A DNA stretch of 64,000 nt from Escherichia coli. Its GTDB lineage: Bacteria; Pseudomonadota; Gammaproteobacteria; Enterobacterales; Enterobacteriaceae. The stretch's first letter is position 1; each line of letters begins with the position of its first letter. The DNA is taken from assembly GCF_013315695.1 (NCBI RefSeq), contig NZ_CP054354.1; one strand, 5' to 3'. Of the stretch, positions 11,628-64,000 are shown piece after piece. Both the position numbers and the translations under genes were made by a program. The notes under the pieces were generated by a model. The model saw nothing but the letters and a program-made list of their open reading frames with translations, ran no database searches and was not told where the DNA came from.

Positions 11628-13928
11628 TCAGTATTTTTCGTCAGTTGTTGGTTGTGCTCCACATGATTTCTGGGGATGATCATTATTTATTGTCTTCGAT
11701 TTATTATTTTCAGCGACCGGTAACAGTATCTCCAGGGGGAGCAGGGTATTCAGAATCGCCTTCACTGAAGGTATATCTTCAGGACCGGAGTGTTCCTCTT
11801 CCGGACGATTCAGTGTGATATAACATACCCGGCGTTCTTCCCTGGTTGTGTTATTGATAGTGTGCACAGCCTTTTTCCACAGTTCGTTTGCCCGGGATTC
11901 GATATCTGTATCATATTGCGGAAGCAGATCCAGTGATGTCTGCGCTGTTGCCAACCGGCGCTGGAATGTATCAATGATACGGTAAGGCTCTGTACGGTTT
12001 TTACGACGTTTACGGGATGGTTTTGCTGTCAGTACACCGATGATGCTGCTGACATGCTCCGGTGTGGGGAGCCTGCGCTGCACTGTCCTGGGGACGAGAC
12101 GGCGGAGACGCTCCAGCCGGGGGGCTTCAACGGAAATATAGCGGTTGATGACCACCGGATCACTGTCGCAACTTTTCTCGCTGTCCGGAATATACACAGA
12201 GGCTGACGGCACCACATCCCCCTGGAAAACGGTAAAGAACTCACCGGCATTCAGTCTGATCAAATCCTGCACGTCGATTTTGCTTTCCATCTGGATGGTG
12301 ATCTGGTTACCGTCCACCCAGGACTCACCCATCACACCATCGTGGCGCTGCAGGCTGCCCATTCTGGCCCGTGCCTCTTCACCGGCGGCATTTTTCACCG
12401 TTCTTGCCGTTTTGTCGTCACTGACAATGCGTCCGGCGAATTTGGTGCCGGCGTTCTGCATCAGTGTGGCGGTGTTGGTGGCGGAGGTCTGCCCTTCAAT
12501 TCGCTCCTGATCCTGCGCCATCATTATCAGGGAAAACTCCAGTGAACGTACCTGGGTGGCCTCCACAGCAATGCGGTCTGTGTAGTAGGCACCGACTTCG
12601 TCAAGGATACAGATATAGGGGAAGCTGCCTTTGTATTTTTTGACTTCCAGGGTCTGTGCATCTGTGCCTTCCAGGCGGTAGCCCAGGTCACGGGCGAGGA
12701 GCATGCTCTGCTGGGTGACGAACATACGACCGAGTGCCGACGTGGTATGGGCCGATGTGTCCAGTGCAGGGATCATCACAATCAGAATGCGGTCGCTGTG
12801 AATACTGTCGCGAATATCGATATCGCCGGCATCTGCCGCAAAGACGTCCCCGAAGGTTTCGGCAAAGGTTGTGAACGTTTCCGAGAACTGACCGGAGAGA
12901 TAAGCATGCTGTTTACGGGGCTCCTCAGTCCAGGCTGACGGCGTTCTCACCAGTGACATATCGAATCCCGGGACATCCTGCAGGTAGTTTCGCAGTGGTG
13001 CGATAGCTTCTTCCGGCCACTGGTCATCAAGGCCACGGCAATAGAGTTTTGCCATCCCTTCCAGCGTCATATGTTCCCGTAACATCTGCAGGGACATGGT
13101 TTTACCTTCCCGGACGCACCAGAATTTTGTGCCAAAGACCAGGGCTTTGTTCATGGCTATCGCCCGTGACTGCCATTCACCGCCCTGAACGTTCTGGGGC
13201 AGCATGGACTGCATGGTTTCGGCGGTGAAGGCTTCGGTGCTGAATGCGAACGGGTTCCAGGTGTTTGACTGTGGGCGGGATTTATCGCCACTCTGAATGA
13301 CTTCACTGCGGGATTTTCCGCCGTTCATGAAGTTGATGACTTCGATATCATCCTCCCTGCCAAAACGTCGGGAGAGATACCAGATTGTCCTCGTGGTATC
13401 GTTCTGTGCCTTGCCGTCAACAAAGGTAAAGCCTCTTCCCCAGCAGAGCGGGTTGAGCAGCCAGGCAAAGGTGGTTTCTGTTTTACCGCCACCGGTGGTG
13501 GCAAAAAACATGACATGCCGGGTGAGGTCATCCATGCTCAGCCAGAGTTCGCGACCGATATCGTTGATACGGCGGTAACCGACATAAAAAATCCCCCGGG
13601 CGGGGAATGTTTCATCCGCTTCATACTGAAACAGGGTGGGCCAGAAGCTGAAGAGGCTTCTCCTGACCTTTCTGTCCTGGGAGGGGTCATCAAGGCTGAG
13701 TGTCATGGGCATACGCAGGGGGCATCGCCAGCGTTGCAGCATGAATATCACGGAGGTGACCAGGGTGAACAGCAGGCAGACAGGAAGGGCCAGTGGCCAT
13801 ATCAGCGCCGTAATGATACTGCCGGCCAGACACAGACCAGTGATGTTCAGGTTATGCAGTGCATTCCACAACGGGTTTCCCCAGGCCGTGCGGTGTATGA
13901 GGTCAGGATTAACGTGGTGCTGGCTCAT
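11628..13928 (-). CDS. trbC: TrbC-like type IV coupling protein (DotL/IcmO-like)
   Basis: 766 aa; N-terminal TM segments; Walker A FATTGGGKTE; size and position match R64 TrbC. Confidence 0.75.
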   Translation of the reverse strand: MSQHHVNPDLIHRTAWGNPLWNALHNLNITGLCLAGSIITALIWPLALPVCLLFTLVTSVIFMLQRWRCPLRMPMTLSLDDPSQDRKVRRSLFSFWPTLFQYEADETFPARGIFYVGYRRINDIGRELWLSMDDLTRHVMFFATTGGGKTETTFAWLLNPLCWGRGFTFVDGKAQNDTTRTIWYLSRRFGREDDIEVINFMNGGKSRSEVIQSGDKSRPQSNTWNPFAFSTEAFTAETMQSMLPQNVQGGEWQSRAIAMNKALVFGTKFWCVREGKTMSLQMLREHMTLEGMAKLYCRGLDDQWPEEAIAPLRNYLQDVPGFDMSLVRTPSAWTEEPRKQHAYLSGQFSETFTTFAETFGDVFAADAGDIDIRDSIHSDRILIVMIPALDTSAHTTSALGRMFVTQQSMLLARDLGYRLEGTDAQTLEVKKYKGSFPYICILDEVGAYYTDRIAVEATQVRSLEFSLIMMAQDQERIEGQTSATNTATLMQNAGTKFAGRIVSDDKTARTVKNAAGEEARARMGSLQRHDGVMGESWVDGNQITIQMESKIDVQDLIRLNAGEFFTVFQGDVVPSASVYIPDSEKSCDSDPVVINRYISVEAPRLERLRRLVPRTVQRRLPTPEHVSSIIGVLTAKPSRKRRKNRTEPYRIIDTFQRRLATAQTSLDLLPQYDTDIESRANELWKKAVHTINNTTREERRVCYITLNRPEEEHSGPEDIPSVKAILNTLLPLEILLPVAENNKSKTINNDHPQKSCGAQPTTDEKY

Positions 13929-15033
13929 TGTGATACTCCTCGCTATCTGTTGCTTTCAGGAAGAGGCGAACGGAAGTGGCGTCTTTCAGGATGCCGGACG
14001 GCAGGTGCCAGCCGGTATCTGATAACACCCAGGGGGTTCCGCCAAAACCGAACTGGCGGAAAGCCTGGTTATTGACATCGATGGCAGCACGTGCGGCGGT
14101 CAGACACTGTCCATCCTGTGCGGCCGGTGCATCGCCGGTGGGGGCCATACCACTGTCAGCGGAATACAGCTGATGCCATCCGGTCGCCCGTTTTTGTGAG
14201 TCCGGTTCACACAGCAGCGGAGCAGTCCGCTTTGTACTGGACTCCCCGCCAATCACGGAGACCGGATAAATCACCACGCTGAATTCCCGGGCCAGTTGCT
14301 TAAGCGCGGGTTCCAGCAGACGGCAGTTGATGCATGCGGGGTCAAGGAAGGCGTACAGCGTGCGTTCATGACCAGTGGACAGGTTAATGGTGAACATCCC
14401 CCGGTCTGCGTTGCGTTTAAGTACTGTGGCCAGATTACGGCGGGCCTCAGCGGCCTGAACGTGTTGTTCTTCCGTCACTGCCGTCGGGGCGGGGGCAGAA
14501 GAAGGTTCCTGCTGTGTGGGAGCCGGGCGGACCGGGATGCTGTTAACATGATGTTCCGTATGTGGGCGTGGTGTCTCTGTGTCGGTTACTGGTTCAGCTC
14601 TCCATTCCTGAGATGTAGGGTAAGCCAGCGTGGAAGGGGACTCTGCCTTCATCCAGTGGTAACCTGCAACTGTCGCCGGCAGAGCAATTCCGGCGATAAA
14701 GCCACACATCAGTGTCCGCCAGAAGCCATTTTTCCGGGAGGGATGTTTTCCTTTTCCGGCATATTCGGCATCCAGGCAGGCATCAATCGCTGAGAGCATT
14801 CTGCCGATGTGATGTCCGGGACGTTCTGCATCAACGGTATCAACAAGCACCGTTTCGGTTATTTCGCGAAAAGGGGAACTGAAGGACAGGTGCATCAGCC
14901 TGTTATTACGGTTAATCAGTGCGCCCAGTTCTGTGACTGGCAGGATGGCAATCACCTCCCGATTACCGTCAGGGTACAGGGCGGTCAGGGACAGGTGTTT
15001 ATTATTCAGTGTTGCAGTGTAGTGGATGGTCAT
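13909..15033 (-). CDS. trbB: TrbB-like thioredoxin-fold (DsbC-like) protein
   Basis: 374 aa; CxxC motif in FLDPACINC; start overlaps trbA stop (ATGA). Confidence 0.6.
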   Translation of the reverse strand: MTIHYTATLNNKHLSLTALYPDGNREVIAILPVTELGALINRNNRLMHLSFSSPFREITETVLVDTVDAERPGHHIGRMLSAIDACLDAEYAGKGKHPSRKNGFWRTLMCGFIAGIALPATVAGYHWMKAESPSTLAYPTSQEWRAEPVTDTETPRPHTEHHVNSIPVRPAPTQQEPSSAPAPTAVTEEQHVQAAEARRNLATVLKRNADRGMFTINLSTGHERTLYAFLDPACINCRLLEPALKQLAREFSVVIYPVSVIGGESSTKRTAPLLCEPDSQKRATGWHQLYSADSGMAPTGDAPAAQDGQCLTAARAAIDVNNQAFRQFGFGGTPWVLSDTGWHLPSGILKDATSVRLFLKATDSEEYHNEPAPR

Positions 15034-16373
15034 TGTTCTTTTTCCTTGTCGGCGGGATGCTGTTTTTCGGTGGTTTCGGTGGTTTCGGTGGTTTCGGTGG
15101 TTTCGGTGGTTTCGGTGGTTTCGGTGGTTTCGGTGGTTTCGGTGGTTTCGGTGGTTTCACCAGTGTCAGTGTCTTCGTCGTTATCATGGCGGCGGGGTAT
15201 CACGTCATCCGTGAGTGACCAGCGGGTTCTGATCTGACGTTTACGATCGCGATCTGGCTGAGGTTCGTCCCATATCAGGCCCAGCCCCAGCATGTCCCGT
15301 CGAAGCCCTTCAATGGCCTCTTCCACACAGGGTTCCGGGCAGGGGAGGCCGAGACGGCTGGCTTCATTTTCTGCCCGGGCAACGGCCACCACGCCGGCCC
15401 CTTCGATGAAGCCTTTTGTGGTGTTTGCCCGGTGAAGGGCATAGAAGAGCGTCCGGTCAACGCCCTTGAGCCACAGCCAGTTGGGGGGCGTCAGGCGCAA
15501 ATCATGTGCGTAAAGCCAGACCAGACCGCTGCGAACGTAACGGTGCTGCCTGAGCCACTGTTGTGCACCTTCTGTTTTTATGACCCGGATAAAGGCGTTT
15601 CTGGCCAGTGAATACACTGGCGTGCTGAAACGCCCCTGGTCCCGCTTGCTTTTGAGTCTGCAGGAGAGGTTGAGGTTATTCATCAGGGAAACAGCCGCTT
15701 TCCGGTCCCCGAGGAAGAACTGCAGGCCAAAGACGGCAAAGAGCGCTTTTTCATGTGGAGCCATGTCTTTCCAGGTGGTCAGAGGCTGGCCCAGCTGCGC
15801 CATAAAGCGCTGGCGCGTGGCCGCAACATCGAGCTGCATGTTGCGGATAAGGTTGTTCTGCGCCACAAAGACTTCCGGGGTTAGAGCGACACGGCGCTCG
15901 GGACGTTTTTGTCCGTGGAAGAGTCTGTTGCTGTCTCCGTCAGCCAGAACGGGGGCGATCGCCGGTGACAGTGATGAAAACAGATGTGGCAGCGTGTGGA
16001 TATTCAGTGGTCTGCGGGTGAAGCGGGGCTGGGCCGGATGCTGAAACCACATCCACAGAAAGCCGATCGTCATGGGAAGCAGAATCAGCCAGAGGATCCC
16101 CACGGTCTGTGACATGACATCCAGCCACTGGCTGAAAGTGATCGTTGCAGCGTTGTTGGCGGTGTTGGCCAGCAGGTTATAACGGGGGGCGGCAAAATGG
16201 TGAAAAGGCCCCCAGTCAGTCATCCCCCACATTGTGTGCAGGATCAGGCAGGTGGCAAAGACGATGTCGGGTAAAAAGAGCCAGATGAGAAGCGCAAAGA
16301 GCAGACATATGGTGCCAACGATATACCATATGTTCATCGGGTCTTCTGTTGTGGGGGAGTGTTGGTAAGACAC
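15030..16373 (-). CDS. trbA: TrbA-like protein (DotM/IcmP-like) with C-terminal (TTE)n repeat
   Basis: 447 aa; N-terminal TM segments; gene order trbA-trbB-trbC as in R64. Confidence 0.55.
   Translation of the reverse strand: MSYQHSPTTEDPMNIWYIVGTICLLFALLIWLFLPDIVFATCLILHTMWGMTDWGPFHHFAAPRYNLLANTANNAATITFSQWLDVMSQTVGILWLILLPMTIGFLWMWFQHPAQPRFTRRPLNIHTLPHLFSSLSPAIAPVLADGDSNRLFHGQKRPERRVALTPEVFVAQNNLIRNMQLDVAATRQRFMAQLGQPLTTWKDMAPHEKALFAVFGLQFFLGDRKAAVSLMNNLNLSCRLKSKRDQGRFSTPVYSLARNAFIRVIKTEGAQQWLRQHRYVRSGLVWLYAHDLRLTPPNWLWLKGVDRTLFYALHRANTTKGFIEGAGVVAVARAENEASRLGLPCPEPCVEEAIEGLRRDMLGLGLIWDEPQPDRDRKRQIRTRWSLTDDVIPRRHDNDEDTDTGETTETTETTETTETTETTETTETTETTETTEKQHPADKEKEQ
15063..15160. repeat. 9-bp tandem repeat (GGTTTCGGT unit, about 10 copies) inside the trbA 3' end
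   Basis: Direct tandem array in sequence; in-frame, encodes TETTETTE... on the minus strand. Confidence 0.9.
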
Positions 16374-17056: not shown

Positions 17057-17245
17057 ATAATCTACGGACAGATTACTTTCTGTACTTCCAGAGCCTGTTT
17101 CTGTGAGTCAAACATGAGCTGGTTTTTACCGACTACACCCAAGTAAATATATTCGATATCTCCCATTTGCCGTATTTTCGTAAAATTCAACAGGAAATAT
17201 TCAACGGGAGTGAGAGAACTGCTGTCCGGGGAGGAGGTACAGACG

Positions 17246-17277
17246 CAAAAAAACCGACTGGTGAGGCCGGTTTTTTT
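17246..17277. terminator. bidirectional terminator-like hairpin (copy 2)
   Basis: aaaaaaaccgactggtgaggccggttttttt. Confidence 0.5.
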
Positions 17278-17593
17278 GCGATTCCGGATCGAAGTTGGTA
17301 GCCCTGACCGGAAGATAACTGCCTATAACTGACTATGAAATAATACGGCTGAAATAATATTTCTGCAAGCACAGTATAAGTATATACTCGGTGTGTCAGC
17401 TTTGAGGCACGTTCTTTCCGGCATATCGTTCACCGGGATGAACAGGTTGCAAGTCCTGGCCAAAACATCAGGTGGTGCTGGTTTTGGTGCTCTGGCCGGA
17501 GAAGAACTGTCTATAACTGACACTATAGAAAACGTGGCGACAGGCAATGTAAGGGCAAACCACGGTGTTCTTTCTCCATTGATGGAGAAGCGG

Positions 17594-20734: not shown

Positions 20735-20985
20735 ACGTAGTCACTTTCCGGCTTTATTTCTGTCCCTGACACAAAATACGTGGTGGCATGAAAAGGATTG
20801 TGGCGGACTGGAAAACGATTAGAATAGCGGCGGGCGCTTGAGGCTGTATGCCGAAAGCGTTTTGTGGACGGCATGTAGCAGAAAGCCCCAGGCGATTTTT
20901 TTATCAATCAACCCAGGGCCCACTGTAATGCCTCAACAACATTATAGTAGCCCGATGACGGCCGAAAGGCAATGGAGGGGCTGCG

Positions 20986-21138
20986 ATGCCACAACGAACG
21001 TTTTTAATGATGTTAATCGTCGTCTGTGTGACGATACTGTGTTTTGTCTGGATGGTGAGGGATTCGCTTTGCGGATTTCGTATCGAGCAGGGAAATACGG
21101 TGCTTGTGGCAACGTTAGCCTACGAAGTTAAACGTTAA
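20986..21138 (+). CDS. hok: Hok/Gef-family type I toxin (PndA/Hok-like), 50 aa
   Basis: Not in ORF track (<60 aa). MPQRTFLMMLIVVCVTILCFVWMVRDSLCGFRIEQGNTVLVATLAYEVKR matches the Hok/PndA pattern; overlapped in another frame by ORF 20838..21131 (mok-like). Confidence 0.7.
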   Translation: MPQRTFLMMLIVVCVTILCFVWMVRDSLCGFRIEQGNTVLVATLAYEVKR

Positions 21139-63700: not shown

Positions 63701-64000
63701 TATTCAGTGGCTTTTGGGATCCTCGCGGTCCGGAAAGCCAGAAAACGGCAGAATGCGCCATAAGGCATTCAGGACGTATGGCAGAAACGACGGCAGTTTG
63801 CCGGTGCCGGAAGGCTGAAAAAAGTTTCAGAAGACCATAAAGGAAAACCCCCACTATTTTTCCTCGAACTTGGCGGAACGCAGAAAAATAATGGGGGCCT
63901 CACAGAATACGGGATAAGTATATATGAAACCGTACCAGAGATTCAACCCTGTGCAGTGTATAAATACACGGCACAATCGCTCCGCCATAAGCGACAGCTT

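Follow-up and report, generated by a model that had tools for sequence, protein, structure and literature searches.

What is a perfect array of ten 9-bp units doing near the end of a conjugation gene, and does it matter how many units it has? The array lies in trbA, in a 64,000-nucleotide (nt) stretch of Escherichia coli plasmid DNA (RefSeq assembly GCF_013315695.1, contig NZ_CP054354.1), the whole of which we call the window. We propose, with a probability of about 0.7, that it is a slippage-driven, in-frame variable-number tandem repeat (VNTR) in a disordered, acidic, cytoplasmic tail of the TrbA protein, most likely tolerated rather than functional. The gene and the array are placed as follows.

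15030 to 16373, minus strand: trbA coding sequence, 447 amino acids (aa) from a GTG start, identified by its open reading frame (ORF), by Pfam, by matches to DotM in the Protein Data Bank (PDB) and by the RefSeq annotation of relatives.
15065 to 15158, minus strand: the VNTR, identified by Tandem Repeats Finder, by translation and by a copy number of 1–16 in relatives.

Tandem Repeats Finder reports a sole array here, with a period of 9, 10.4 copies, 100% matches, no indels and a score of 188, and it is the only tandem repeat with a score of at least 50 across the window. On the plus strand it comprises 10 full units of TTTCGGTGG and a further 4 nt; ten perfect 9-mers cannot be a product of chance, and copies lying head to tail at 100% identity are what is expected of a VNTR. 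Coding is on the minus strand, where the unit reads CCACCGAAA and its codons, GAA-ACC-ACC, give Thr-Thr-Glu. The array is thus translated as E(TTE)10, approximately residues 406–436, and the protein ends ...IPRRHDNDEDTDTG-E(TTE)10-KQHPADKEKEQ*. The sequence-only reading from which this analysis started had described about ten tandem 9-bp copies encoding a Thr/Glu repeat at the C-terminus of TrbA, at 15063..15160. The copy number and the coding are as it said, and its coordinates bracket the array correctly. Its placement in trbA was also right, to which we add that the gene is on the reverse strand; the repeat lies close to the C-terminus and not at it, since 11 further residues come after.

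Copy number varies widely among relatives. Direct counts in 19 related plasmids gave 1, 1, 2, 3, 4, 4, 5, 6, 7, 7, 8, 8, 9, 10, 10, 12, 12, 13 and 16 units, all in frame. We also took two evenly spaced samples along BLAST rankings, each of 60 records: one was drawn from 470 plasmid records, the other from 392 E. coli records (the latter from 380 of 5426 complete genomes). The length difference from the query was an exact multiple of 9 in all 120 complete records sampled, and the implied copy number (n) ranged from 1 to 16 in the plasmid sample and from 1 to 12 in the E. coli sample, with no sharp mode. Alleles with a single unit made up about 10–15% of the samples and occur on plasmids typed as conjugative, in both E. 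coli and Klebsiella. Close relatives therefore differ by whole units, as VNTR alleles do, and several sets of plasmids have zero differences over 2.2 kb of flanking sequence yet differ in n (6/5; 10/7/3; 9/8; 16/12/10). The sequence-only reading had foreseen changes in length without frameshift and had named an invariant copy number as the outcome that would speak against it; the first is what the range of 1–16 units and the multiples of 9 give, and the second is clearly not what is seen across the relatives. Nor does the locus behave as a phase-variable one, as the 9-bp unit is three codons and keeps the frame, and no promoter is predicted nearby.

It might be objected that such differences are errors of sequencing or assembly, arising where repeats are poorly resolved. 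One observation fits this: the 96 'partial' TrbA proteins of cluster P0002 (405 aa, ending ...DNDESTDTG) stop exactly at the start of the array, which suggests that some draft assemblies may end contigs there. Against it, errors would have to yield exact multiples of 9 in 120 of 120 sampled complete records while leaving the arrays perfect, and to do so in sequences obtained by many laboratories, on many platforms and over many years, the reference plasmid pECOED (NC_011754, n=12) among them. The 90-bp array is moreover shorter than typical reads, and we regard an artefact as extremely improbable.

The speed of change is best seen in p510016_84 and p503458_84 (NZ_CP025855.1 and CP025878.1), 85-kb plasmids from the same Indian study, which differ end to end by 1 mismatch and one 9-nt gap. 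In this pair the array has therefore changed as often as all the other 85,000 positions together. Extrapolated crudely from this one pair, with bacterial substitution rates taken as typical, the rate expected of a VNTR here would be about 1e-5 to 1e-4 per generation. Both are virulence plasmids of enterotoxigenic E. coli (ETEC), carrying the CS4 pilus and the heat-stable toxin ST; they retain trbA-trbB, have an element of the IS66 family at the position of trbC, and are typed as non-mobilizable. The array is thus still slipping in a transfer region that is defunct. A control is provided by the trbA of IncI1 (R64-type) plasmids, which has no repeat and was exactly 1206 nt long in 15 of 15 intact sampled records (at least 98.5% identity).

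The make-up of the arrays also bears on their origin. Those of one sub-lineage are built of the synonymous unit TTTCAGTGG (ACT for ACC) with one terminal TTTCGGTGG, and this homogenisation points to probable concerted evolution by slippage. Two arrays carry non-synonymous interruptions (TTEPPE and TEITE), and constraint on the peptide sequence is therefore weak.

The same arrays weigh on the idea that the repeat acts as DNA, for instance as reiterated protein-binding sites, a plus-strand G-quadruplex or some other cis-acting structure, its coding being incidental. The plus-strand GG-N-GG-NNNN-GG-N-GG tracts could in principle form two-tetrad quadruplexes. However, the folding of either strand of the array is no better than that of shuffled sequences (z = 0.07 and -0.15), the unit is exactly three preferred E. 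coli codons in the trbA frame, the units of the sub-lineage differ only synonymously, and arrays of a single unit are common; we consider a DNA-level role highly improbable. A search for promoter-like sites near the array found none, and terminator-like matches near it were close to chance (3 against a shuffle mean of 1.2, sd 1.0), all three being antisense to genes. ORFs running over the array on the plus strand, encoding (VVS)n, (GGF)n and (RWF)n, were rejected as spurious: they lie antisense within conserved trbA/trbB and are unannotated in all relatives inspected.

The protein in which the array is found is a DotM/IcmP-family subunit of the type IVB coupling complex. Its identification as TrbA, made at the outset from the letters alone, agrees with the annotation of relatives in RefSeq ('IncI1-type conjugal transfer protein TrbA', followed by 'DsbC family protein'), with a match to Pfam PF23127 DotM_C (E=1.9e-46, residues 185–358, profile positions 2–171 of 172) and with the fold of the cytoplasmic part of DotM. 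PDB chains of DotM are matched by the TrbA sequence at an E of about 1e-7 (phmmer). The score of 69 bits against the NCBIfam DotM_IcmP equivalog falls below the cutoff of 230, and TrbA is therefore a member of the DotM family yet no DotM equivalog. An AlphaFold2 (AF2) model, built from a family alignment of 33 sequences, was compared with the PDB by Foldseek; the top 13 matches were all DotM (6EXB, 5X1U, 6SZ9), with TM-scores of 0.66–0.86 normalised to the target and root-mean-square deviations (rmsd) mostly of 2.4–3.6 Å, the cryo-EM chain of 6SZ9 giving an rmsd of 6.0 Å. Two parts of the protein concern us.

15300 to 15821, minus strand: DotM_C-like cytoplasmic domain, TrbA residues 185–358, identified by Pfam, by charge calculation and by Foldseek, with TM-scores of 0.74–0.86 normalised to the DotM chain and an rmsd of about 2.5 Å.
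15033 to 15245, minus strand: predicted disordered C-terminal tail, TrbA residues 377–447, identified by AF2 confidence (predicted local distance difference test, pLDDT) and charge calculation.

Membrane segments lie at the N-terminus, where hydrophobic windows start at residues 12–30 and 86–93 and AF2 places helices at 12–111, and the confident helical DotM-like part extends to about residue 364. Residues 377–447 are modelled as coil with no secondary structure at a pLDDT below 50 (27–39 by block). The DotM_C-like domain has a net charge of +11 and an isoelectric point (pI) of 10.1, the last 55 residues a net charge of -14 at n=10, and each unit adds three residues, one of them Glu and thus one negative charge. 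By homology with DotM the tail would be cytoplasmic, and variation of a surface antigen, the usual rationale for bacterial in-frame VNTRs, would for that reason be inapplicable.

The end of the tail is tightly interleaved with the start of trbB.

13909 to 15033, minus strand: trbB, 374 aa, DsbC/thioredoxin-like, identified by its ORF, a weak Pfam Thioredoxin_2 match and the RefSeq name 'DsbC family protein'.
15030 to 15033, minus strand: ATGA overlap, comprising the trbB ATG (15033..15031) and the trbA TGA (15032..15030), read from the sequence, with the same 4-nt overlap annotated in relatives.
15043 to 15047, minus strand: AAGGA, the Shine-Dalgarno sequence of trbB, which lies within the coding part of trbA and 9 nt before the ATG.
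15033 to 15065, minus strand: last 11 codons of trbA (KQHPADKEKEQ), corresponding in a junction alignment to the 18-nt trbA-trbB spacer and Shine-Dalgarno region of IncI1.
15159 to 15188, minus strand: acidic segment before the array (HDNDEDTDTG), homologous in the junction alignment to the putative ancestral acidic tail (..TDNEF in IncI1).

That trbB would start directly after the repeat was also anticipated correctly, the trbB start in fact overlapping the trbA stop. Overlapping stop and start codons, with the Shine-Dalgarno sequence inside the upstream gene, are features of coupled gene pairs, and the ATGA suggests that trbA and trbB may be translationally coupled; the overlap is specific to the lineage of the window.

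An effect at the level of RNA would be possible at such a junction. The U-free, unstructured (GAAACCACC)n might serve as a standby site or spacer upstream of the trbB ribosome-binding site, with n adjusting the translation of trbB (and trbC). The trbB ATG follows 31 nt after the end of the array, which is predicted to be about 80% unpaired, and a contribution of trbB to the efficiency of conjugation is known from a related IncB/O/K/Z plasmid (PMC10286972). However, when junction mRNAs with n=0–20 were folded, the predicted accessibility of the Shine-Dalgarno sequence (0.61) and of the initiation region (0.80) was identical throughout, ribosomes translating trbA traverse the array in any case and terminate at the ATGA, and no internal promoter is predicted. 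With accessibility of the trbB start constant over this range we rejected the proposal as unsupported, and judge it very unlikely.

How the array came to be at this position is indicated by comparison with the IncI1 plasmid pC59-112 (window 15030–15065 aligned with L020 2690–2730). In IncI1, trbA stops after ...DNEF and is followed by an 18-nt spacer with a GGAG Shine-Dalgarno sequence. The lineage of the window has neither the Phe nor the stop; its array sits after the homologous DNDED segment, and the reading frame continues through the old spacer so that the last 11 TrbA residues double as the trbB ribosome-binding region. An acidic stretch with a terminal Phe ends 38 of 40 representatives of TrbA-family clusters that retain the C-terminal region, P0003–P0042 among them (PF in 19, LF in 7, EF in 5, others in 7), for example ...RPGDGDDDSPF, or ...ATDHEF and ...ATDNEF in IncI1. 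The two exceptions are one truncated entry and the lineage of the window, which ends ...ADKEKEQ and so lacks the Asp/Glu-rich, Phe-terminated motif of the family. From these alignments, the array appears to have arisen where this lineage lost the acidic Phe-ending tail and began to read through the spacer. Unrelated low-complexity insertions occur at the same position in other TrbA lineages (P0004, P0046, P0048). The acidic ending with Phe also resembles the docking tail of F TraD and the C-terminal tip of single-stranded DNA-binding protein (SSB). The SSB tip reads ...DDDIPF; no ssb gene with a DDDIPF end was found in the 64-kb window, and to our knowledge no partner of the TrbA tail has been described.

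The main competing proposal is that the tail works as a tuning knob. The acidic tail would act as a pseudo-substrate, docking, whether in cis or in trans, with the basic DotM-like domain or a partner in the coupling complex or relaxosome; copy number would set conjugation efficiency or the choice of substrate, and slippage would supply selectable variation. The opposite charges of domain and tail (+11 and -14) are as this would predict. Legionella DotM binds Glu-rich C-terminal tails of effectors through arginine patches (R196/R197, R217 and R314/R315), with a Glu-Phe contact present in the published docking model (PMC5802825). The invariant R307 of TrbA is aligned with R314 of DotM, the only binding arginine that is highly conserved; the acidic Phe-ending tail is kept in the 38 of 40 family representatives and so is not junk in the family; and F-like TraD has an analogous variable repeat beside its docking tail.

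Other evidence is against it. At the other DotM arginines, T308 of TrbA aligns with R315 and D203 (with K202 adjacent) with R217, R196/R197 falling outside the region aligned with TrbA, and the terminal Phe has been lost in the lineage of the window. Copy number is broadly spread from 1 to 16 without a preferred value and differs between plasmids with identical flanks, which argues against strong selection on length. One unit has changed in the ETEC pair, which lacks trbC and is typed as non-mobilizable, so that there is no selection on conjugation there. We therefore consider the tuning knob unlikely, although an electrostatic interaction between tail and domain is possible but unsupported. 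Its most specific form, in which the tail is a 'charge ruler', serving the same domain or partners as an inbuilt, Glu-rich docking arm or pseudo-substrate through which slippage retunes conjugation, is more doubtful again. Such a ruler may offset the loss of the acidic-plus-Phe terminal motif of the family and, if it exists, a few hundred to a few thousand generations would be enough for I-complex plasmids to readjust how efficiently they conjugate or which substrates they select.

We therefore return to the tolerated VNTR as the preferred reading. The ten identical units would misalign during replication, probably by slipped-strand mispairing, and each misalignment would add or remove whole units of three codons, Thr-Thr-Glu. 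The array would lie in a disordered, acidic, cytoplasmic tail behind a folded, basic DotM-like domain, and a change in length would leave untouched the reading frame, the 11 C-terminal residues, the trbB Shine-Dalgarno sequence and the ATGA overlap; for these reasons length changes would be tolerated. The array would have grown where the lineage exchanged its short acidic Phe-ending tail for the translated trbA-trbB spacer, and its copy number would be a mostly neutral or near-neutral character, changing on epidemiological time scales. The broad distribution of copy number, the frequency of n=1 alleles on conjugative plasmids and the disorder of the tail together suggest that any effect of copy number on conjugation is small.

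Several points weigh against this interpretation. Near-neutrality is an inference, and some function for the charge or length of the tail is plausible, since the tail is acidic family-wide and adjoins a basic domain, and Glu-rich peptides are bound by the homologue of that domain in Legionella. The samples in which copy number was determined were evenly spaced along BLAST rankings and are neither random nor phylogenetically corrected, and the argument from mutation rate is based on few plasmid pairs.

The array belongs to a compact transfer locus on a plasmid of the I-complex conjugative type (IncB/O/K/Z / I-gamma). Two further features place it there.

11628 to 13928, minus strand: trbC, 766 aa, a DotL-like coupling ATPase, identified by its ORF and NCBIfam TrbC_conju (E=3e-303).
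63840 to 63988, plus strand: PK-repZ regulatory pseudoknot, identified by Rfam RF01087 (188.9 bits).

The genes run trbA-trbB-trbC on one strand with overlapping ends, in synteny with the DotL-like ATPase of the I-type transfer region. The three trb genes are tightly packed on the minus strand, and a 20-nt overlap between trbB and trbC (13909–13928) is likewise annotated in relatives. An alternative trbA start, the ATG at 16337, would give a protein of 435 aa, and both starts are in use in RefSeq. The exact 447-aa TrbA of the window was not found among a collection of 15 billion proteins; the cluster to which it belongs at 90% contains 2525 proteins that vary in length. The PK-repZ match agrees with an I-complex replicon and places the replication-control region at the right-hand edge of the window. 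About 470 plasmids in PLSDB carry near-identical DNA and are typed as IncK2/Z, IncI1/B/O or IncI-gamma/K1, MOBP and MPF_I; the first 25 kb of the window is 98.6–99.3% identical to plasmids of about 86 kb from E. coli and Shigella sonnei, and the locus is found in about 7% of complete E. coli genomes (380 of 5426). Gene trbA is reported to be needed for conjugation in R64 and in the IncB/O/K/Z plasmid pMS7163B, whose trbA::Cm mutant does not transfer and is complemented in trans (PMC10286972); the function of TrbA was called unknown by Meir et al. 2018 (PMC5802825).

Some neighbouring elements were also recorded. An AgrB antisense RNA lies at 17245–17332 on the minus strand, about 0.9 kb upstream of trbA (Rfam RF02891, 47.7 bits, gathering score 40), and in relatives a DinQ-like type I toxin, DqlB, is annotated in the corresponding region. 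A sok-family antisense RNA at 20832–20988 on the plus strand (Rfam RF01794, 124.7 bits) implies a Hok/Gef (pnd-like) post-segregational killing module, and a Hok/Gef protein is annotated near this position in relatives. In plasmids matching window 1–25000, a 'TnsA endonuclease N-terminal domain-containing protein' is annotated near the trb/nik genes.

IncB/O/K/Z and related I-complex plasmids spread extended-spectrum beta-lactamase (ESBL)/AmpC and virulence genes in E. coli and Shigella. With the array as a marker, the spread of plasmids within an outbreak can be traced cheaply and at high resolution, because in the one pair that shows it the array has changed at the same pace as all the rest of an 85-kb plasmid. 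By the same token, comparisons that depend on gene length or allele identity, such as protein clustering or plasmid schemes modelled on core-genome multilocus sequence typing (cgMLST), will split identical plasmids at trbA. For TrbA itself, the array marks the C-terminal tail of a DotM-like subunit as a tolerant, disordered, acidic appendage and, together with the conserved acidic-plus-Phe ending found elsewhere in the family, provides a simple handle for probing the role of the protein in I-type conjugation.

We found no description of the TrbA repeat in the open-access literature searched. Nearest to it is the variable QQP repeat of F-like TraD. In the C-terminal extension of that protein this repeat comprises 5 such residues in F and 23 in R1 (PMC3245843), and it is upstream of an acidic tail whose last residue, Phe717, docks into TraM (PMC7555446). 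In both cases an in-frame, low-complexity, variable repeat lies beside an acidic tail in the unstructured cytoplasmic C-terminal extension of a coupling-complex protein, and most TrbA lineages also end in an acidic stretch and Phe. However, TrbA/DotM is not a VirD4-type ATPase, the transfer system is type IVB/MPF_I rather than F-type, the repeat is acidic TTE rather than QQP, and the TrbA lineage of the window has no terminal Phe.

The 'E-block' recognition of Legionella DotM provides a second comparison, in that TrbA has the cytoplasmic fold and basic charge of DotM and (TTE)n is a Glu-rich C-terminal peptide. The differences are that only one of the five binding arginines is matched by an aligned arginine in TrbA, and that the Glu-rich peptide belongs to the DotM-like protein itself and not to a substrate. 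With simple-sequence contingency loci the array shares the probable mechanism of slipped-strand mispairing and high, reversible mutability, but changes by 9 bp always keep the frame and cannot switch expression ON or OFF, and the product is a cytoplasmic tail and not a surface antigen, to which a rationale of immune or phage evasion does not apply.

Coding VNTRs are used in multiple-locus VNTR analysis (MLVA) of enterobacteria, and some of these are plasmid-borne, such as STTR10pl on the Salmonella virulence plasmid. The TrbA locus was found in no published typing scheme in the literature searched and differs from such loci in sitting in an essential conjugation gene. In its short perfect units of a length divisible by three, its stepwise whole-unit change and its many alleles among close isolates it is nonetheless of the same kind, and most likely the repeat behaves mechanistically like an MLVA-type coding VNTR, with no new mechanism involved.

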